Shown here: positions 1 through 22,448 of the stretch, in pieces
Layout of the letters: every line of letters begins with the position of its first letter
Position numbering within the stretch: the stretch's first letter is position 1
DNA from: Candidatus Sysuiplasma jiujiangense
Lineage (GTDB): Archaea > Thermoplasmatota > Thermoplasmata > Sysuiplasmatales > Sysuiplasmataceae
Direction: 5' to 3'
Length of the DNA: 22,448 bases
NCBI GenBank assembly: GCA_019721075.1
Contig: JAHEAD010000001.1
Span: 310,001-332,448 of the forward strand
Made by a program: the position numbers and the translations under genes
Notes under the pieces: model-generated
Database searches by the model: none
Seen by the model: the letters and a program-made list of their open reading frames with translations, nothing else
Told to the model about the DNA's origin: nothing

Positions 1-787
1 CAGCATTTCTGCAGTTAGCGCAAATACTCTTCGTATCCCATCTCATCAGAGATTTTTCTGCCAAATCAACGTATGCCCATGCATCTTTCAGCGTTCTTTC
101 TCCCTTTGGAATCTCCACCACGAAGAATTCCCCGAGACCCAACACAGGAGCAATATCATTTATCCAGTCAGATGAAGCAATCTTGGCCTCGAATTTTGTC
201 TCAAAATGCTCAACGCTAAGATAGCCAGCACCTTGTGTGTTTTGAGACGTATTGGACGAAAGTAGAACCAGATTGCCGCGAGGCTGCAGATATCTATCAT
301 TTAGGTACGCGTAGAGCAAAAGACTGATGTTGTTTACGTCTGTGCCAAATGTTTTCGACACCTGGCTCTTGAACTGTTCGGATAGAGGCACGCTATCAAA
401 AGGAAATTCAACAACGTACGACATTTGAGTTTTATTCAAAACATAATCAACCAAGACTTTAATATCAATCTTTACGTCGCCTTTTCTGTCGAGTCTCCTA
501 CTTTCCTCGATGAAACTTAGCGATTGTCGGTCGAAAATAGCAACGGCGGAAATAACTTGCTCAACCTCTTCGAATTGTTCACCTATGTACCTTATCGCCT
601 GAAGGGATGCGCCGCTGAATGAGACCTCGGGCATGAGCATCGCGATTGTTTTGTCTTGAATTGTAATCGACCCGCTCAGACTCAGAAGCGCTTCTTGGCT
701 TCTGCGGTACCTCACACCAAAAGTGAAGCGTAATGCGGGTTTGAAATAATCGGTAGCCGCCAGTACGGATATGTGTTTTACATTCAT
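1..787 (-). CDS. Cargo protein (3'-partial, >=262 aa), beta-rich N-terminus plus start of a HEPN-like helical domain; distant paralog of 1381..2364
   Basis: Not in the ORF track because it runs off the edge. Manual translation from ATG 787 is open to base 1 (MNVKHISVLAATDYFKPALRF...FDRQSLSFIEESRR...SSDWINDIAPVLGLGEFFVVEIPKG...LKDAWAYVDLAEKSL...ICANCRNA). GGAG about 8 nt upstream. Confidence 0.8.
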   Translation of the reverse strand, partial: MNVKHISVLAATDYFKPALRFTFGVRYRRSQEALLSLSGSITIQDKTIAMLMPEVSFSGASLQAIRYIGEQFEEVEQVISAVAIFDRQSLSFIEESRRLDRKGDVKIDIKVLVDYVLNKTQMSYVVEFPFDSVPLSEQFKSQVSKTFGTDVNNISLLLYAYLNDRYLQPRGNLVLLSSNTSQNTQGAGYLSVEHFETKFEAKIASSDWINDIAPVLGLGEFFVVEIPKGERTLKDAWAYVDLAEKSLMRWDTKSICANCRNA

Positions 788-830
788 CTTAGCACTCCCA
801 TAACTCTCTTCCACAATCGGCTTCCATCCA

Positions 831-881
831 TCACTCCTCCAGCACCTCCTCAATCTTCTTCAGTAGCTCTGCCACCTTCTT
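831..881 (-). repeat. Direct repeat copy 3 of the repressor 3' end (KKVAELLKKIEEVLEE*)
   Basis: 46/51 nt identical to 2421..2471 by manual alignment. Confidence 0.95.
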
Positions 882-920
882 CTTGGCATTGATTAACTCG
901 ACGTTGTGTTGCTTGTTCAT
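831..920 (-). CDS. Mini-ORF, 29 aa (MNKQHNVELINAKKKVAELLKKIEEVLEE), ending in the repressor C-terminal repeat
   Basis: ATG 13 nt after the stop of 934..1221, GAGGA upstream, open through the repeat in the repressor's frame. Confidence 0.45.
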   Translation of the reverse strand: MNKQHNVELINAKKKVAELLKKIEEVLEE

Positions 921-933
921 GGCGTTGCCATCC

Positions 934-1221
934 TCATTGTTTTTTACGCTCTTTCCGTTTCTTAAGGATGTCACATAGTGTTGAATCCACACTTCTTGCG
1001 ATTAAAGCTGAGCCCCAGAGCATAAGAAATGCAGAGGCAACCACTACCGTCATCGCCGATAATGCTGCAACACAGTATGAGTTGAAGTGTGAGTTCTTGA
1101 CAAAGCCTATTGCGCTGTTGGCAAAATAATTGAAACTGAAGACGACTCCCGCGACTACAAGCCCTACGCCAAAGGAGTACTTGATTTTCGGAAGTCCACC
1201 GTTTTCGTCTTTACTCGTCAC
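934..1221 (-). CDS. Small membrane protein with two predicted TM helices and a basic C-tail (cargo)
   Basis: Hydrophobic stretches FGVGLVVAGVVFSFNYF and CVAALSAMTVVVASAFLMLWGSALIA; GTG start overlaps the repeat TGA (GTGA) and follows GGAGG SD-like sequence. Confidence 0.7.
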   Translation of the reverse strand: MTSKDENGGLPKIKYSFGVGLVVAGVVFSFNYFANSAIGFVKNSHFNSYCVAALSAMTVVVASAFLMLWGSALIARSVDSTLCDILKKRKERKKQ

Positions 1222-1267
1222 CCCTCCAGCACCTCCTCAATCTTGCTCAGCAGTTCCGCAACCTTCT
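1215..1267 (-). repeat. Direct repeat copy 2 of the repressor 3' end (QKVAELLSKIEEVLEG*)
   Basis: 1215..1244 is identical over 30 nt to 2418..2447; upstream codons for V, A, E, L are synonymous variants. Confidence 0.95.
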
Positions 1268-1370
1268 GCACATACAGCGTTACGATTACAGAGTCAGTTA
1301 ACGTAATCTTCTGGAACCTGCAGGTGTTCTTTGTAGCACGGTTGAATGCAAGGCCGAGTTGCCAATTCAT
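1218..1370 (-). CDS. Mini-ORF, 50 aa (64 aa from alternative ATG 1412), ending in the repressor C-terminal repeat
   Basis: ORF track 1218..1412; internal ATG at 1370 lies 10 nt after the stop of 1381..2364. Confidence 0.4.
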   Translation of the reverse strand: MNWQLGLAFNRATKNTCRFQKITLTDSVIVTLYVQKVAELLSKIEEVLEG

Positions 1371-1380
1371 AGTTTTACTC

Positions 1381-2364
1381 CTATCTGGTCTTCCCTTCCT
1401 TTGTGGCTTCATCGTTGATTACAACCTGTGAAAGAATCTTAGATAGATACTCCATCAGGGAGACCGTCATTCTGAAACCGAGCAATGCGTCCTGATATGT
1501 CGACAAATAAATTTCTCTATGGGCACCTATCTGTAGGAATTGATCAACCTTCTTCTGAAGATTCCCAATGCTCTCGATCAGATTCTTCTGTGCGCCTACG
1601 ATCTCGAAAATCCGCTCATCCTTTGAGGGTCTACCCTTCTCTGAATCCGACTTCTCGTTGATTGCTTTCTTTAGTTCATTCAGTTTGTTATTTAGATAGG
1701 GGTCAAACCTATCCCAGGAGGCTCTGAGGTCGGTAAGTATGTCTGAGGCGTCTGATTGCGGCCCGAGCAATAGTTTTTCATTGGCACTCTGAACCTTCTC
1801 AAAAACAGTGCTAAATCCTTCTAACTTAGGTCTCTCAATTTCCACAATCCATTTTTCTCCATAGCCAATATCAGCCAGAAATTTTGTCCATTTAGTTTGC
1901 GAAAATGACCACAAACCACCGAGTTGCAACGTTCCTGATGGATTTGGAGAGCCTGATCCTTGCCTTGTGTTGTCTGCACGAACTTCCTCATAGAAGCCCG
2001 TCAATTGTAGGTAGATGTCTATATCATCTGTCCTCTTTGACTCAATAAAATTAATAGCCTCCTGATTCAAGTAAAGATAGTAGCGCACTTGAGCTGACAT
2101 TGTTGGTGTAATTTCTTGAAAACACAAAGATGAACTGCTTATAGTTACGCCACCAAAGCTGATTTCTAGGATGGAAGGTTTGATCCTATATGTGGTTCTT
2201 ATTTGCATATTTGGTTGTTGTTGGAAAGTTCCATAATCGACCGAAATATTCAATTCCAACTCGACAACACAAAATGGAAGTCGGCTCCTAACTATCAGTT
2301 TTGGGTCGCCCTGTATCAATATCTTTCCATTATTTCCCACACCCTGCTCTGAATGAAATGGCAT
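1381..2364 (-). CDS. 327-aa cargo protein: beta-rich N-terminal domain plus C-terminal helical HEPN-like domain (possible defence effector)
   Basis: Long ORF with GGAGG SD. The C-terminal pattern (VQSANEKL...ILTDLRASWD...GAH...DALLGF) resembles HEPN/DUF4145-type helices but lacks the canonical Arg of RxxxxH. Function is inferred. Confidence 0.8.
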   Translation of the reverse strand: MPFHSEQGVGNNGKILIQGDPKLIVRSRLPFCVVELELNISVDYGTFQQQPNMQIRTTYRIKPSILEISFGGVTISSSSLCFQEITPTMSAQVRYYLYLNQEAINFIESKRTDDIDIYLQLTGFYEEVRADNTRQGSGSPNPSGTLQLGGLWSFSQTKWTKFLADIGYGEKWIVEIERPKLEGFSTVFEKVQSANEKLLLGPQSDASDILTDLRASWDRFDPYLNNKLNELKKAINEKSDSEKGRPSKDERIFEIVGAQKNLIESIGNLQKKVDQFLQIGAHREIYLSTYQDALLGFRMTVSLMEYLSKILSQVVINDEATKEGKTR

Positions 2365-2420
2365 TTATTGTATGCCTCCACGTCTTGTCTGCTTAATGTC
2401 ACTGATGTAGTTATCTTTCG

Positions 2421-2708
2421 TCACCCCTCCAGCACCTCCTCAATCTTCTTCAGGAGCTCAGCGACCCTCTTGCCCTTGGGGGTGAGCGAAATCATGTTGC
2501 GGGCAGGATAGGAGGAATTGTCGATGCGTTGGGTTATCAAACCAAGTTCCTTTAATTCTGAGATTGAACGTACTAGCTGATTGTTTGGAATGTCATAATC
2601 ACCCAATATCTTTGTGAAATATGACTCCCCTTCAAGAAGATGATAAAGTAGTCTCAAAATTCCCGACTGCCGTTCGAGTTTCTTCAAACCTGACGCCCCG
2701 GCTTTCAT
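2421..2708 (-). CDS. Winged helix-turn-helix regulator (HxlR/MarR-like), probable element repressor
   Basis: ILRLLYHL...LVRSISELKELGLI...ISLTPKGKRVAELL matches the wHTH pattern (L.ELGLI...LT.KG); divergent from the viral operon. Confidence 0.85.
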   Translation of the reverse strand: MKAGASGLKKLERQSGILRLLYHLLEGESYFTKILGDYDIPNNQLVRSISELKELGLITQRIDNSSYPARNMISLTPKGKRVAELLKKIEEVLEG

Positions 2709-2807: not shown

Positions 2808-3002
2808 ATGAACCCTTCTGAGAGTATGTATGTCAGGATAGGTGCCTCAATACGAAGAGACCAAAAAGAATGGCTTGACGAGCACGCTGAGTATAGCATT
2901 TCCGGCATACTTCAGAAGGGAATAGACGAATTGATGGATGTTGAGAGGCTGCTTAAGGAAGGCAGAATCGTCCCAAAAGAAGAGCAGGAGGCCTCCCAAT
3001 GA
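2808..3002 (+). CDS. Ribbon-helix-helix (CopG/Arc-like) DNA-binding protein
   Basis: Beta strand YVRIGASI followed by helices RRDQKEWLDEH and SISGILQKGIDELM; first gene of the rightward operon. Confidence 0.7.
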   Translation: MNPSESMYVRIGASIRRDQKEWLDEHAEYSISGILQKGIDELMDVERLLKEGRIVPKEEQEASQ

Positions 3003-5309: not shown

Positions 5310-5428
5310 CATGGAAGTGCGAGATTTGCGGCGAGAAATTCGACGGGCATCTAATCAGACACACATTGGTGTGTTTAGTCCTGTCGACTGTCGAACTGAT
5401 CAGACTGAGGAGGGCGGTGGCGAAATGA
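5306..5428 (+). CDS. 40-aa C2H2/C2HC-type zinc-finger protein (MTWKCEICGEKFDGHLIRHTLVC...)
   Basis: Below ORF-track cutoff; ATGA overlaps at both ends; CxxCG.KF...HLIRH motif. Confidence 0.7.
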   Translation: MTWKCEICGEKFDGHLIRHTLVCLVLSTVELIRLRRAVAK

Positions 5429-5892
5429 AAGACTCGCTTACTCTCGATGAGTATCAGCTTCTCGCTTCGCGTACGGCCAACGGCATCGATAACCAGACTG
5501 ACCGAAGATTCAACGCGCTGCTCGGCCTGATTGGCGAAACCGGTGAATTTGTGGAGAATGCCTTCAGGCGGCCTGTGGTCACAGGCAGTTTCATGAGGCA
5601 ATATTCTGAGTTTGTGGATATAGTGGTTGAGTTCGGTCGCGAATCCGAACGAATCAAGCATGAACTCTTCCACAAACATCCGAAGGGGCACAAAATCGAG
5701 GAGCCGAAACTGACAATGGAGAACTGCAGGGAAGAGCTCGGCGATATTCTCTGGTATCTGACATGGCTCTGCTCAGAGTTTGGATTCAGCCTCGAAGAAG
5801 TAGCGCAGGCGAATATCGACAAACTCCGGGAACGCTACCCGGAAGGTTTCAGCGTCGAACGGAGCATCAACAGGAAGGAGGCAGGAAAATGA
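5425..5892 (+). CDS. MazG-like nucleoside triphosphate pyrophosphohydrolase
   Basis: EYQ..A.RTA, LGLIGETGEF, EELGDILWYL, NIDKLRERYPEGF motifs; likely start is ATG 5425 (ATGA overlap) rather than 5284. Confidence 0.85.
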   Translation: MKDSLTLDEYQLLASRTANGIDNQTDRRFNALLGLIGETGEFVENAFRRPVVTGSFMRQYSEFVDIVVEFGRESERIKHELFHKHPKGHKIEEPKLTMENCREELGDILWYLTWLCSEFGFSLEEVAQANIDKLRERYPEGFSVERSINRKEAGK

Positions 5893-6371
5893 CATTGGCA
5901 GGCAACGCACCATACTCTGACACGGAAGTTCCGGCAGACAAGTCGAAGTTCCAGATAGAGCAACTGTTGAAGAAGTACGGCGTGTCTGGGTCGCAGTGGA
6001 CAACCGACTGGGAAAACAACAGAGTCATGTTGCGTTTCGTGTTGACCAACAGGGAGGGGAGAAGGATCGGCATTCAGCTGGAACCCCCGATGTTCATGTC
6101 GAAGCACAGGACATGGGACAAGACAAGGGGCAGGCACGTTATTGAGGAATCGCCCAATTGGGCTCAGTCCATGAGGCTCTTCTACTACTACATCAAGAGC
6201 AAGCTCGAGGCAGTCTCCTGGGGACTGAGGGAAGTCGAGCAGGAGTTCCTCAACGACATCATTGTAAGGGACAGCGCAGGAAGAGAAACAACGGTGGGCA
6301 GACTTGTAAGCCGCAATGCGCTTGCGGATCAGAAGCTGGAGTATGAGAAACTTCGGGAGGCTCAGGAATGA
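5889..6371 (+). CDS. Phage-type hypothetical protein (160 aa)
   Basis: Start ATG 5889 overlaps the MazG stop, AGGAGG SD; N-terminal Y..T.V....S...I..LL.KYG pattern I associate with phage proteins. Confidence 0.7.
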   Translation: MTLAGNAPYSDTEVPADKSKFQIEQLLKKYGVSGSQWTTDWENNRVMLRFVLTNREGRRIGIQLEPPMFMSKHRTWDKTRGRHVIEESPNWAQSMRLFYYYIKSKLEAVSWGLREVEQEFLNDIIVRDSAGRETTVGRLVSRNALADQKLEYEKLREAQE

Positions 6372-7315
6372 ATCCGTCACAAGGCAGGACTCTTTCTCCC
6401 GATGAAAAGGCTGGATTCAGGACTTGGGCAGTGGGAACGGGGAAGTACTCGGTGGCAACCGCAAAGAGGATGGCCGGCAGGGTGGCGAGGCTGTCTCTGA
6501 TTCTTGATGTTTTCAATCCCGTTGCAGAGGAATACTGGAAATGGGTGGAGAAGGAGCTGTCCCGCGGGAAGAAGGAGAAATCCGTGGCCAATGACATCTG
6601 CGACCTGAACGCATGGTTCGAGTACAAGCACATTTCTGTGAACCTGCCAAAATTGAGGCAGAGAAGGTCGCCGGAACCATGGGTTCCCGACGACAATATT
6701 GTGCTTGCGATGATATCGAGGCAGGACAGGAGGCCTGACAGGTCAGCTGCTGCCAGGGACAAGGTGATTATCGAGATTTTTGCCTTCGGAGGCATCCGCG
6801 TGGGGGAACTCGTCCAGCTCAACCTGGACGATCTGCGGGACGGTCTGCTGCATGTGCGGAGCGAGAAAAGGGAAAAGGAGCGTATGATAGGCCTTCCGGA
6901 CTTTGTGATGAACGACATCAGTCGCTACATTACCACCTACAGGATAGAAACATCAAACGCGCTTTTCACCACGAAGAAGGGAAGAGTGACATACGATTAC
7001 ATCAGGAAAATCATAAAGCAGGAAGGAGCGAGAGTCGGCGCGCCGGGAATGCACCCTCACGCCCTCCGGCATTTCTGCGGGACGGCGCTGGTGAACGCCG
7101 GCGTGAACCTGAGGGCGGTCCAAATGCACCTGGGCCATGCCTCCATCAGCACGACACAAATATACACGCACCTGAAGGAGACAAAGGTGGCGGAGGTCGT
7201 GGCCAGCGCTTTTGAAAACTGCTTTCGGAAAGAGGTGGGAAAAACGGAATTTGGGAAAGAAGTCGTGAATGCATGTGAAGGTGGGAATGTACCAAGTGCA
7301 GGTGTCGGGATTTGA
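6368..7315 (+). CDS. int: Tyrosine recombinase/integrase (XerC/D-like catalytic domain)
   Basis: Catalytic residues present: GIRVGEL (R), SEKREKER (K), HALRH (HxxR), LGH (H), TTQIYTH (Y). Confidence 0.95.
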   Translation: MNPSQGRTLSPDEKAGFRTWAVGTGKYSVATAKRMAGRVARLSLILDVFNPVAEEYWKWVEKELSRGKKEKSVANDICDLNAWFEYKHISVNLPKLRQRRSPEPWVPDDNIVLAMISRQDRRPDRSAAARDKVIIEIFAFGGIRVGELVQLNLDDLRDGLLHVRSEKREKERMIGLPDFVMNDISRYITTYRIETSNALFTTKKGRVTYDYIRKIIKQEGARVGAPGMHPHALRHFCGTALVNAGVNLRAVQMHLGHASISTTQIYTHLKETKVAEVVASAFENCFRKEVGKTEFGKEVVNACEGGNVPSAGVGI

Positions 7316-7383
7316 ACCCGACTTGTTGGCTTTCATCCTTACGATGGAAGGCCAAAATCCTAACCAGACTAGATTACACCTGC
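7297..7383 (-). tRNA. tRNA-Gly(TCC) with a 13-nt intron at position 37/38 (7332..7344)
   Basis: Acceptor GCAGGTG/CACCTGC-A; anticodon stem TTGGC/GCCAA with CT-TCC-A; T-arm TCGGG-TTCAAAT-CCCGA; 74 nt after removing TCGTAAGGATGAA; CCA not encoded. Confidence 0.93.
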
Positions 7384-9179: not shown

Positions 9180-12100
9180 TCAAAGCCCGCCGCCTGCACT
9201 TCCTTCCTCCTCGTTCATCAATATTATGCCGCAGTTAGGACAGCTCCCTCCTGTTGCGGTAAGGCATTCGTCACATATGTTTGTCTGGCACGCTCCACAT
9301 TCACCTATTGCATCCTTTCCATGATAGAGGCATTTTTCATCCTCCTGCTGAATTTCAACACGTTCTTCAGGCATACTTTCTTTTTTGCCATAATACTGTT
9401 CCATGAGCTCCTGTCTTGACTCGTAGTCGTTATAGATGCTGCTTTCCTGTGCCATAACCGGGGGAGAGACTACAACATAGTCAGAACGGTAACCGCTTTT
9501 TCCCATGGCAGCAAGACTTCCCATTATGAGTCTACCGGTGTAAATGCCAACATTCAGATTCCTGACAATCCCTATTGTATTCCTATCCTCGGGTCTCAGT
9601 TTTGTTGCCTTCTTCATAAGTTTTTCGAACCTGCTATCTTCAACACCTTCGATTATGTTCATCTGCTGCACTTTTCTTATGTATTCCAGTGACTGCTTGC
9701 ACTCGTCGAGAGAATAAGATGTGAAGTTTGCAACTATGTCGCATAGTCTCAGACCGAGTGAAGCCGTCTTTTCATTTTTGAAGCATTTGAGCATTACTTC
9801 AGCTGACCTGTTTTCTATCGCCTCCCAGCCAGGATCACCTGCCGAAGGCACGGTAAGTGTTGTCGGCTCCTGAACAGCCTCGAATGCGTCATCTATTTCA
9901 TCTATTGGTATTTTGCAAACTGAAAAAGCTTCCTCCCTTGTCGGTATCCTGTTCATTTCATATTCCAGCTTCAGGAGGGACTTTGCATTTTCCTCCGACT
10001 TCCGCTTCCTTTCCTTCAATACGCACAATTCGAGTTTCTCCTTTGCGTCTTCGTTACCTGGTTCGAGTTCCAGTGCCTTTGTAAGGAGTTCTTTTGCTTT
10101 ACTGTAAAGGAAATCGTCGATATTCAGCGTTGCAAGCTCCAGGAGTGCCGATGGGAATTCTGGCTCAATACGTAAAGCTTCCTCAAGTGCCTTTCTTCCT
10201 TCAGAAACGAGCCCCTGTCTGCTAAGCGAGAGACCCAGATAACACCAGGCCTCTGCGTTCTCATGTTCCTTTCTTGTTAATTCATTTAACGTCATTGCTG
10301 CCGAAGAATATTTTCCGGTGCTGTACTCGCATATGCCCTTACCGAGAAGTATGTCGGTTCTCCCCGGTTCCATCTTCATTGCCTTTCCATACGAGTCAAG
10401 TGCTTCCTGGAACTTTTCAATATGCATCAGACAGTCTCCTCTGAACCTGTATATGTTGCCCGTGCATATTCCGGCTGCAAGAGCTCCGTTGAACACTTCA
10501 AGCGCGCTCGAAAAATTGCCTTCAACCATGAGAAGTTCGCCCTTCAGCTCAAGTGCAATGGAATCTTTCGGGTTGAGGGTGAGTGCCACATCAACAGAAC
10601 GCTCAGCTTCAATGTACTGCTGAGTCGCCATAAGTATTCTGCTTCTGAGCGTCATGTGGCTGCTGGAGCCGGGATCCGACTGCATTGCCCTGTCAGCGTA
10701 TTCAAGTGCATCAGAGTATCTCTTCATAGAAAGGTAGGCCTCTGCAACTCTGCCCGACAGCAATGGATTGTTTCCGTCAGTCTTCAATAACTCTAGAAGC
10801 AATGCGACTTCATCCGCAAATTTTCCCCGTTTGTGCAAGATACCCGCTTTTCGTAGAACAGCGGTTGTATCCGCTCCAAACTCGTCGATCGCCGAATCGT
10901 ATATCGACAATGCGACATCATATTTTCCTTCACTTTCAAGAATGCTTCCCTTTTCCAGTAGAAGATCCCTGTCCCGGCCATGCTTCTCAATAATCATGTC
11001 GATAGTTTTGACTGCTGATGCGATGTTGTTTGTAGCGGCATATGCTGTCTTCAATGCGCTGAGAACATGTTGGTCCTTTGACTCACAGGCATTCAGAGAC
11101 GCTATTGCCTCATCATATCTCTTCAATGCCAGCATCGTGAGACCTCTAATTCTCCAGGCGTTGACATTTTTCCTGTCGCTCCTTATGAGATTTTCGGCAC
11201 TCTCCAAACACTTCTGGAACAGTTTTGCCTCATAGTAAAATGTCAGGCACTCCTCCTGCGCCCTGATTGAAGCTGCGAACATCTTTTCAATGGCACCAAA
11301 TTCAGATATGGCTTCTTCCGTCCTGCCCATTGAATTAAGGAGTTTTGCCCTCCTCACGTAAACGAGCGGATCAACCGAACCGCACTTTATTGCTGCGCTG
11401 TAATGTTCCAACGCTTCTTCGCTTCTGTTCAATGAAATGAGTGCATCAGCGACCATTGCCTCGGCAAACTTCGCAGGGTATCCGAGTTTCATCGCGAGTC
11501 GTGCCGCGCTAATGGCTTCATCATACCTTCCTGCTCTGTTCAGCGCATCAGACTGCAGATAGAATCCTTCCGGTGTTTCCTTCTTTCTGATGTGTTCTTC
11601 CAGAACTTGAAGTGAACCGGCGGAATCTCCCTTTTCTAGCTTTATTTTAGCTAGCCTGTAAACGAGTCCAGAAGGTATTTTGTCGTTTGCCTTAATCGCA
11701 TCAGTGAGAAGCCTCTCCTCTTTCTCAGCCATACCATGTCTTGCATAGAATGAACTCAGCAGTTCGACAGCGTCTATTGTGCTCCCGCTGGCATATAGTT
11801 TTTTAAAGCTGCGTTCGCTTTCTCTTGTCCGGCCCAATCTTTCAAGCGCGGTTGCCTTATTGTTGTAAACAGCCGCTGTCCTCTCGCCGACGGATAACAT
11901 TGCATTGGCGCTTCTGAGCACCGTAAGATCATCTCTGGCGGCTTTCGCTATTTCGCATAAAACTTTAAGTGCATCTGCACTGCCAACCCTCAGAACGGTC
12001 TCTGAAAACGCCTCCGTCGCCTCTTTCTCTTTTCCTCCTTTTGCCATCACTGTGAGTTTCGTAATCAGCGCCTGAGTATTATCTCTGTGCTTCAGGAGAA

Positions 12101-20285: not shown

Positions 20286-21401
20286 TCACAAAGATCCGAC
20301 GACGGATAAGGATGGGTGATGGAGGAAAGGGAAGGAAAGTGGAGGTGGCGCGGCTGACTGTCCCGAAGCATAGACAGCATTGTGAGAGTTCAGGAATGCG
20401 CTTCCCATCTCCCTCAGCTCATCCCTGTTATAGTGGCATCAGTGGCTCTGAAGGAACGATGTCATCCTGCGGCTGACGGGAAGCTCGACGGGATGCACAC
20501 TGGGATCCTTCTTCGGATGGGATTTCACCACCATCTACGGATGCCTCCCAAGGAATCTACACACCTCGTCCGTGCCGTGGCAGGATGCCCCGTCGATGAA
20601 CAGTATTGCCTTCTTCAGCTTCTTCCTTTTGCAGTATGCAGCGACGGTAGACAGGTGTCTCCTGAACTTCACGTTCCTCCGCCGTGGGAAGGAATTTCAG
20701 ACAATGCTGCCTGTAGCGTAATCCAGCGTGATAAGGAAGTTACACCTGGTGGCATATCCGGACGTGGGCACGAACATCTCCGTTCCCTTCCTCACCCAGA
20801 CGGATTCAAGTCTGGCAAGCAGCTCCATTCATTTCTCATGCTCGAAGAAGACGCCGACGCCTCTGCTCCTGAGTGCGGGGACTACGCTATTGTAGTTATC
20901 GACGATCTTCCTTTTCCTGTAGTCCCTGTGTATCGACCCGGATGCCCTCAGCTTCGGTCTCCCCCAGGCGCACTTCTTCTCTATGAGTGCCCTCCTGACA
21001 GTCGATGCGCTCACATGCATGCCCTCCTTCTCAAGCTGCATGGCCATGTCGTCAATGGTCCATCTGCCCCTCCAGATGAAGAATTCGACAGGCTCATGGC
21101 ACAGCAGCTGCGGAATGCGTTTACTTGCCGCACTGCCATTTGAACTCAGCGCACGTTTCCTCTTCCTGTTCTTCAGCTCGGCGATGCCCTTCCTCATATA
21201 TCCGGCAGTTCAGACCGAAACAGTCTTTTCACTGACGCCGTGTATGGCAGCCACATCCCTGACGCTCGAACTGCCGCCCCTCATGACGATATCCGAGCCC
21301 CTCCTGTATTCGCATTTCGATTTCGCATGGCACTCCTTCATGAATGAGCTCAGCTCATTCACTCTCTCTGACGATAAAGTAATTCCAGACTCTGGAGGCA
21401 T
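20286..21401 (-). pseudogene. IS630-family transposase pseudogene
   Basis: One frame with internal stops at 21210, 20829, 20697, 20535 and 20439. HTH (VRDVAAIHGVSEKTV), winged HTH (WTIDDM...VSASTVRRAL), DDE motifs FFE(H)EK, LFIDGASCH, PKKDPSVHPVE. Confidence 0.85.
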
Positions 21402-21835
21402 CCCATCTCTCCAGACACCGGATGACACCGGGTAGATCACCTTTAACAAGAAGAATCGCTGAGAATATGGAATGAACATTTGAACGCGCAGCACCAGCAT
21501 GCGGCGGACACATTTCAGCCGGGTAGTCCTCAAATCATACGCAGGAATGCTAAGTGTGTTACCGAAAGGTAGCTGCAGCCTGTATTGCATGGAGTTGTGT
21601 AAGCGTTGTGTTTCAGCCTCTGACCTGATAAAATTCGTGTCCAATCACAGACACAGGGACTGCCGGTCTTAAACTGTTTCTTCATACGATATGTACGCTA
21701 AGTGTCAGAACCTCCGAACAGGATCGTAATCTTCGTACGAAGATCGAGTGAAATATGCCTGTATTCCTGCTTTCCGGTCCTTTTGCCGCCTGCCCGCCGA
21801 TCCTGTTATAACGTTCCGCCGCGAATCCACCCCTG

Positions 21836-22448
21836 ATGCAGGGTGTGCTGAACAGGGAGCGACTCTACAGGTCGCTCACAACACTCGACATATTCGTGGA
21901 CAGGGCACTGCACCTCACACCGAAGTCGACGACGCTGTCAGGCTTCAACTACAACAGAGACCTGCTGAAAGCGTCAATGGCTAACACTTACCTGGAGACT
22001 GTAGGCAGCAGGGCAGACAGCATTCATCTTGCTGTCAAGTCTGTGAATCCTTCAGACATATACTGGGCCTATCTCGGGACACTCCATGCCATGCTGCCCA
22101 GGACCGGCTTCACGGAGCATGATGCCGTCCTGGCCTTCGACCATACAGACGAGGAGTTCTACGGCAGCGTGGAAACTGCATGGATACACAACTGGACAGG
22201 GGAGCATGCGGTGACGGGCAGATTCAAATTCCTCACATGCGCACTCGTCGGCAGGGATGTGCCGGAGAAGGTGCCCCTCCTCTCCATCCCGGTGCACATA
22301 GGGTACAGCAACCCGGCCGATGTGTCGTTCATGCTGGAGCTTGTCCGCCCTCTGTTCCGCTCTATAAGGCTTGCCCTGTTCGACAGGGGGTTCTACAACA
22401 ACGAGCTCATGCTCACGCTCTCCAGTTCGAATGTGCCGTATCTCATAT
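21836..22448 (+). CDS. ISH3/IS4-like DDE transposase, 3'-partial
   Basis: Not in ORF track (runs off the edge). Manual translation is open from ATG 21836 (MQGVLNRERL...VLAFDHTDEEFYG...KFLTCALV...LALFDRGFY...VPYLI). TTATAA box 25-30 nt upstream. Confidence 0.85.
   Translation, partial: MQGVLNRERLYRSLTTLDIFVDRALHLTPKSTTLSGFNYNRDLLKASMANTYLETVGSRADSIHLAVKSVNPSDIYWAYLGTLHAMLPRTGFTEHDAVLAFDHTDEEFYGSVETAWIHNWTGEHAVTGRFKFLTCALVGRDVPEKVPLLSIPVHIGYSNPADVSFMLELVRPLFRSIRLALFDRGFYNNELMLTLSSSNVPYLI

Follow-up and report, generated by a model that had tools for sequence, protein, structure and literature searches.

The left end of a 22,448-nucleotide stretch of DNA from the acid-loving archaeon Candidatus Sysuiplasma jiujiangense, hereafter the window (C1:310,001-332,448 of G000, a metagenome-assembled genome of 2.29 Mb in 55 contigs, 97% complete), carries a row of cargo genes behind a small winged-helix regulator, inside a 31.4-kilobase (kb) element integrated at a tRNA-Gly gene. 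With a probability of about two in three, this locus is a cargo hotspot in a family of integrative elements, whose modules are shuffled at conserved linkers, most likely by ordinary recombination and not by an integron-type enzyme. The features of the array are the following, with lengths in nucleotides (nt), base pairs (bp) or amino acids (aa) and open reading frames given as ORFs:

2421..2708, minus strand: 95-aa winged-helix regulator (HxlR-like; Pfam HxlR, E 1.5e-6), a putative repressor
2421..2471, minus strand: R1, the last 17 codons (51 nt) of the regulator
2365..2424, minus strand: 19-aa mini-ORF from the regulator stop to the start of cargo 1, read from the sequence
1381..2364, minus strand: cargo 1, a 327-aa protein modelled as a beta-sandwich and a HEPN-like bundle that has an invariant His; elsewhere, homologues stand behind the same regulator family
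1218..1370, minus strand: X'::R2, a 50-aa in-frame fusion ORF
1218..1268, minus strand: R2, a 51-nt copy whose final 27 nt are the same as in R1
934..1221, minus strand: cargo 2, a 95-aa hydrophobic protein whose GTG overlaps the R2 TGA
831..920, minus strand: X''::R3, 29 aa, the start of gene X joined in frame to the regulator tail
831..881, minus strand: R3, a 51-nt copy of the regulator 3' end
784..831, minus strand: 15-aa mini-ORF that starts in the R3 stop and stops on the start of cargo 3, read from the sequence
1..787 and on to C1:309,735, minus strand: cargo 3, 350 aa, beta-sandwich plus HEPN-like helical bundle

The array thus runs regulator-R1-cargo1-X'::R2-cargo2-X''::R3-cargo3-X, all on the minus strand. 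A preliminary description of this DNA had given the order as repressor, R1, 327-aa cargo, R2, 95-aa membrane cargo, R3 and a third cargo; its coordinates hold, and the third cargo comes to 350 aa. R1 to R3 are direct repeats that all end on the same TGA (R1 is 90% and R2 84% like R3), and their last 27 nt agree at 26-27 of 27 positions. Across the genome, the 51-mer matches the three copies with 0, 5 and 8 mismatches and the next-best site with 17; for the final 27 nt the corresponding counts are 0, 0 and 1, and 8. The repeats are therefore not due to chance, and their 51-nt alignments bear out the proposal that R2 and R3 are copies of the regulator 3' end. No further copy appeared when the contig was extended leftwards, the whole genome giving three matches at up to 2 mismatches. 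Third codon positions account for 5/8, 3/5 and 5/8 of the pairwise differences among R1 to R3, a bias that would be expected if the tails come from different regulator alleles.

R2 and R3 each form one half of a larger joint, in which the 5' part of a small gene, X, is fused in frame to the regulator tail, so that each unit has two homology arms. Gene X (about 53 aa, C1:309,575-309,737) lies beyond cargo 3, where a long, frameshifted copy closes the array; profile searches returned no family match for it. Over 84 bp, the X' arm (1262-1345) has 81% identity to gene X (C1:309,629-309,712), and the X part of the window copy differs from X by 8 amino-acid-changing and 7 silent codon differences, at otherwise conserved sites. 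X''::R3 has an X-type start (contig joint 10708>11898 and loose ends at 10712, locus numbering) and is 21 codons shorter than X'::R2. Most simply, the 29-aa form would have arisen by an in-frame 63-nt deletion between two GAAG-type short homologies. For the common left edge of R2 and R3, the best explanation is a single fusion joint followed by this deletion and not a fixed crossover site. When the fusion ORF served as query in a protein search, it gave six candidate clusters, each an X::R fusion joined at the same point; the window's own cluster (three members, on several contigs) is among them, and the other five are 70-76% identical. In G002, G003 and L004, the regulator or a tail remnant is likewise followed by cargo that includes X-family genes, and gene X itself occurs in three of ten genomes of the order, all of the same genus. 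Pattern scans for the X joint returned nearly all chance matches (290 loci, none outside known elements except a distant X-like ORF, L236), and in another such scan 1 of 12 loci was relevant. The preliminary description had units of repeat plus gene recombining into the repressor 3' end; the tail as a gene-capture joint survives from that proposal, with the correction that the unit here is R-cargo-X', the fusion half of which had been missed.

The tail core is purine-rich and unstructured, and R1 to R3 gave no hairpin when folded with and without flanks (nine of nine folds with z of -0.88 to +0.49). It contains GAGGAGGTG, complementary to the 3' end of the host 16S RNA, 8 nt ahead of a GTG or ATG that overlaps the TGA; judged by these signals, R is a stop/Shine-Dalgarno/start module. 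Cargo 2 begins at the stop/start overlap of R2, and cargo 1 and cargo 3 are reached through the 19- and 15-aa mini-ORFs, each with a stop that meets the start of its cargo; the 15-aa mini-ORF may act as a translational bridge, and a 21-aa counterpart of the 19-aa one precedes the cargo 1 homologue of L076. Because R combines a Shine-Dalgarno match with a stop/start overlap, and because the fusions are in frame, each cargo would be translated from the regulator transcript, and captured genes should be expressed at once through the R linker. A repressor role for the regulator, and a promoter active in lysogeny, are plausible; Orf4 of the temperate archaeal virus SNJ2, described as a winged helix-turn-helix (wHTH) lysogeny repressor (PMC10123103), is a precedent for the label. 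In a sigma-70 scan, which has archaeal promoters outside its scope, counts of promoter-like and terminator-like signals were near those of shuffled sequences, with none in R.

Variation among relatives was followed in 55 collected loci with a regulator homologue, 50-52 of which were used: L096 (match ending at the contig end), L107 and L113 (3' end not alignable) were dropped from all counts, and L092 and L100 additionally from the count of extra tail copies (n = 50). The close relatives of the regulator are Thermoplasmata, one cluster member being named from Candidatus Sysuiplasma acidicola, and searches of viral contigs with the regulator found no relative. As the preliminary description had supposed, cargo content and order are not fixed: the genes behind the regulator differ widely, families recur in other orders (homologues of cargo 1 at L076, L078, L079, L084, L086 and L105), and repeat-bounded gain or loss exists. 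The clearest case is a set of loci (L076, L084 and L086) that run regulator-R-mini-ORF-cargo 1 homologue without an extra cassette, beside others (L078, L079 and L083) that hold an extra 399-402 bp, made up of a 128-aa membrane gene and a 26-bp tail copy at its end. A homologue of this membrane protein, 51% identical over 95 aa, stands behind a tail copy in G003.

Extra same-strand copies of a locus's own tail were present in 6/50 loci (the window, L078, L079, L083, L105 and L108), L105 having a 41-nt copy at +997 and a weaker one at +3261; controls gave one match in reversed sequence and three opposite-strand matches that look like chance. Shorter copies were seen at L041 (21/23) and L042 (19/23), with none of at least 18 in the rest of G000, and short-core matches numbered 9 against 0.35 expected in the 52 loci, the matches not being independent. 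Tail copies in relatives measure 20-51 nt and their left edges differ, and in L078 and L041 the upstream cargo stops at an out-of-frame TGA within the core. An ORF of at least 45 aa starts at the regulator stop in 29/52 loci, many of them kin; the overlap of a start with that stop, found in 45/52 loci, was rejected as evidence since most TGA stops yield an NTG by chance. Degenerate tails also occur within cargo genes: in L066 and L085 the first cargo gene ends, at +368 from the regulator stop, in an in-frame regulator tail matching at 19/27 positions, and a 297-aa cargo of L042 likewise ends in a degenerate copy.

The regulator family itself combines a nearly invariant tail with heads that differ greatly. 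This constancy may partly reflect protein constraint on a dimerisation helix, as in Sso10a-type proteins, to which the match here is weak. The regulator of L004 is a mosaic, its middle resembling L042 (77/87 nt, and 46/87 to the window) and its last 31 codons resembling the window (83/93, and 71/93 to L042).

Population data point the same way. Among 23 matched runs, those matching best are from mine drainage and tailings metagenomes, and contigs of four runs from four studies (X3, X5, X6 and X7, none flagged as source) were aligned at a likeness of 85. Summed depth, which is not copy number, ranged for the most part from tens to hundreds along the backbone in three runs and stayed mostly below 20 on the cargo, except for cargo 3 in X6. 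Breaks and divergence of contigs cluster at two places, the R1 stop (8 contigs in X3) and the X edge (7 contigs in X3 and 2 in X5). One joint of X7 skips cassette 2 in register, with an X remnant directly on R3 and a net difference of 387 bp, equal to the R2-R3 spacing; 26 of its 37 letters are like X'. Another, in X5 and X6, skips cassettes 2 and 3, leading from cargo 1 directly to X with a net difference of 1633 bp, equal to the X'-X spacing. Further joints connect the regulator to X with different sequence between (X3) and R2 to X (X3, X7), and X3 has another in-frame X::R variant.

The setting of the array is that of an integrated element, with these features elsewhere in the window:

2808..3002, plus strand: divergent 64-aa ORF, the first of a rightward operon
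6368..7315, plus strand: tyrosine integrase, XerA/XerC-like, whose end overlaps the attachment site
7296..7383, minus strand: tRNA-Gly(TCC), the integration target
7297..7312, no strand assigned: 16-bp att core

The att core (C1:317,297) is the 3' end of the tRNA-Gly gene, and its only other copy in the genome, at C1:285,894, sets the element size. A likeness of R to this core (8/13, by eye) was rejected as chance. One contig of X6 runs past the core (window 7312, L115:18312) into the same 10 letters as stand after the left att copy, which may hint at an excised circular element; the integrase of such a circle would be extended at its C-terminus. The left part of the element encodes a helicase, a membrane-protein block and a P-loop ATPase, genes that suggest a provirus of enveloped-virus type. 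A pleolipovirus-like provirus would have a block of membrane proteins with a spike, followed by an ATPase; here a membrane-protein block and the ATPase are present, the latter with one weak match to a haloarchaeal virus, and the 701-aa protein of the element had no match among phages. Two tyrosine recombinases (the integrase and a 204-aa protein at C1:301,896-302,510) are accompanied by an ORF at C1:298,860-299,470 that we take, from its motifs, to be serine recombinase (resolvase)-like. The 64-aa ORF is presumably a ribbon-helix-helix/Cro-type partner of the regulator, with no fitting family match; its operon also holds a MazG-family gene (5428-5892). At the right end of the window (20382-22448), the ORF list contains two stretches that we assume to be transposase-like. 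A scan of 19 kb with Rfam found no family apart from the tRNA.

A second bracketed cargo block lies in the same element, between 168-bp direct repeats (89%; C1:300,099-300,266 and C1:305,930-306,097; L007, L115) that represent the 5' part of a 69-aa gene at one end and the whole gene at the other. They enclose a zinc-ribbon membrane gene, the 204-aa tyrosine recombinase, a 307-aa ORF, an Mrr-type nuclease and an N4/N6 methylase; different cargo stands there in G002 and G003, and contig loose ends cluster at the block edge. C1:306,760-307,050 encodes a second wHTH paralogue (46%), one that lacks the conserved tail, in a block that includes a D12-class methylase and is 90% identical over 3.8 kb in G003. 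Elsewhere in the genome, a 60-nt stretch (83%, C1:201,787-201,846) about 270 bp behind tRNA-Gly(GCC), beside transposase-like remnants, is an isolated relic of the regulator 3' end, and C37:1-5138 and C14 are more integrase-bearing elements, the former with a distant wHTH homologue at its end, where the contig stops.

Cargo 1 and cargo 3 are distant paralogues (profile comparison probability 97.9%; pairwise BLAST not significant), members of a beta-sandwich/HEPN-like family that counts at least 187 representatives (E up to 0.001). Their predicted models, with confidence scores (pLDDT) of 80 and 90, combine a beta-sandwich with a helical bundle. The best HEPN match, 2hsb, scored Z 8.6 (root-mean-square deviation 3.5, 106 aligned) and Z 9.9 (3.6, 107 aligned), tied with unrelated helical bundles, and Foldseek on cargo 1 returned nothing beyond weak beta-sandwich matches. 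The catalytic motif of HEPN RNases is Rx4-6H. An invariant His is present in both families (H282 in 12 rows, H307 in 71 rows), with no invariant Arg 4-6 residues ahead of it, and whether the two proteins are defensive RNases is a guess at about even odds. None of the three window cargoes has a Pfam, NCBIfam, PHROG or PADLOC family, an ANTH match at E 0.034 was rejected, and the protein atlas matches are unnamed clusters. Some of the relatives' cargo is similar to defense proteins, 5 of 13 scanned proteins having weak PADLOC matches. Cargo 2 and cargo 3 were not found in five related genomes, in a search that ran without a positive control. The preliminary description had seen the cargo as more AT-rich than the rightward operon, and the GC content at third codon positions does lie lower (0.43-0.47 against 0.61-0.71 in six of the seven measured operon genes; the first, the 64-aa ORF, has 0.51). 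However, it matches that of neighboring host genes (0.44-0.49), so the cargo is host-like and not of a foreign, AT-rich kind.

These observations can be assembled into a tentative route. The basic unit would be regulator-R-cargo-X. A rare crossover at a short homology (GAAGG, common to both), joining X from one unit to the regulator tail from a second, would have produced the X'::R joint, which could then offer two arms, X' (about 85-105 bp) and R (51 bp, with a 27-bp core). Homology-dependent recombination at such arms might add, remove or swap R-cargo-X' units, either between sister elements or via circles, and would always leave the regulator in front intact. Other lineages join by a 26-41-nt tail alone, and the cargo carried in this way would be largely defensive or accessory.

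Several points weigh against this shuffling model. Repeats of 26-51 bp are short for RecA/RadA-type recombination. No second long copy is present in 44/50 loci (17 of the 50 with less than 1 kb downstream), so that stacking is only occasional; no locus has more than three copies (n = 50), and several loci are near-identical kin. The 402-bp difference may be either a gain or a loss. The joints in homology register fit cassette-less alleles but do not prove them, the extent of the contigs into the next gene not being visible, and among the joints listed, which come from contigs only, there is no cassette-closing back-joint of a circle. A defense function of the window cargo has no family support.

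Other explanations share some of this evidence. A dedicated recombinase of the element (the integrase or the 204-aa enzyme) could move cassettes at the regulator tail, as an integron analog without IntI or attC. The tail is joined at the same codon in R2, R3 and all six fusion clusters, the element carries two tyrosine recombinases and the serine recombinase-like ORF, and the archaeal integrase of pTN3 is described as mimicking homologous recombination on segments of about 100 bp (PMC5495485). However, one founder joint with the 63-nt deletion accounts for the common edge, tail copies in relatives vary in length and left edge, a 93-nt tract has been exchanged within the regulator, R lacks a dyad or hairpin, and the same joint occurs in relatives with other or no nearby integrases; we consider this reading unlikely. 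In a more specific version, also rather doubtful, the recombinase would circularize units of regulator tail, cargo and X' and insert them into the 3' end of a lysogeny repressor, as a platform unrelated to integrons. If that were true, any captured defense gene would be expressed in the dormant state, and the two-armed X'::R would be a purpose-kept, population-wide cassette site.

The repeats could instead be inert scars of sister-element insertion and decay, by tandem accretion, with no unit mobile as a cassette. This would suit the second wHTH paralogue and other truncated gene copies within the element, the lone relic near another tRNA-Gly, and the decayed X copies, the element's own X being frameshifted; the clean indel with its direct repeat, the return of the same cargo families behind each host element's own tail, and the numerous alternative joints at identical bases make it quite improbable. 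It has to be considered, too, that the X::R ORFs are kept as small proteins with the C-terminal helix of the regulator, tuning it as decoys, with a secondary role for the DNA. All six clusters, and the two window copies as well, keep the reading frame and finish with the same helix, and tail differences are mostly synonymous. Yet an open frame would be selected by translational coupling alone, the synonymous differences may come from regulator alleles, and the amino-acid changes in the X part fall at otherwise conserved sites; this proposal, although compatible with shuffling at linkers, seems very unlikely. An artefact of metagenome assembly would be a great surprise. The assembly has 55 contigs, and no single aligned contig covers the whole array, but the copies are non-identical, exact sharing extends over only 27 bp, and the fusion ORF cluster has members on several contigs. 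Moreover, the cargo2-R2, R2-X'-cargo1 and cargo1-R1 pieces were found letter for letter in X5, X6 and X7, runs of three other studies, which speaks against the assembly artefact that the preliminary description had allowed for.

Parts of this arrangement have counterparts in known systems. Integrative elements can restore the 3' end of their target gene, as is seen here in the 16-bp tRNA-Gly att pair. In both cases a duplicated 3' end keeps the gene in front intact, but the units of the array are stacked, without an integrase, and the duplicated end comes from the element's own regulator. Integrons, archaeal ones included, are defined by IntI, folding attC sites and an attI next to intI (bioRxiv 10.1101/2022.02.06.479319). 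The array resembles them in its tandem promoterless genes of one orientation, with related repeats between them and a fixed head in front, and co-oriented, repeat-separated cassettes that vary between relatives are present. It differs in having no IntI, no folding attC, arrays of three at most, coding-derived linkers and variable crossover tracts. The element integrase reaches 55.4 bits against the TIGR02249 cut-off of 265, matching over residues 228-278 only, and none of ten matches in the 97%-complete genome exceeds that cut-off; there is no attI beside an intI, the array head being the regulator 3' end, about 3.9 kb from the integrase gene. In the strict sense, the label "integron-like" of the preliminary description has to be given up, on these grounds and on the rarity of a second long copy.

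A closer parallel is offered by the PeSL cassettes of the T4-like phages RB49 and phi1, in which repeated expression-signal linkers flank single accessory genes (PMC2839356). In the sections of that paper drawn on here, the authors compare them to integrons, show mini-circles and name no dedicated recombinase (PMC2839356). Short repeated linkers around single accessory genes, inserted, deleted and swapped by recombination, are common to both. The PeSL linker is an intergenic promoter with a terminator hairpin, whereas here it is the coding 3' end of a regulator, unstructured and fused to the 5' end of a second gene; the host is archaeal, the cargo would ride on the regulator's transcript, and mini-circles are a PeSL feature. 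The modular exchange of lambdoid phages through conserved linkers, after Botstein and Campbell (as summarised in PMC2839356), is similar in that linkers place modules correctly, the equivalent here being a regulator family in which the head varies, the tail is conserved and one allele is a mosaic. Those linkers swap one module for another, whereas the duplicated ones of the array also permit stacking. Altogether, the locus works like linker-mediated modular shuffling of the PeSL kind and not like an integron. No description of a regulator-tail linker arrangement was found in the result listings of an open-access literature library; the principle is known from phage PeSLs, and in the archaeal version a coding, translational linker replaces the promoter and terminator.

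Shuffling at such linkers would give small archaeal integrative elements a route, resolved here to the base, to build and reshuffle islands of cargo, probably defensive, without an integron. The regulator tail would double as a recombination arm and a ribosome-loading signal. With the regulator stop as a fixed anchor and variable cargo behind it, these loci may provide a ready source of candidate archaeal defense genes, including the uncharacterised beta-sandwich/HEPN-like family.

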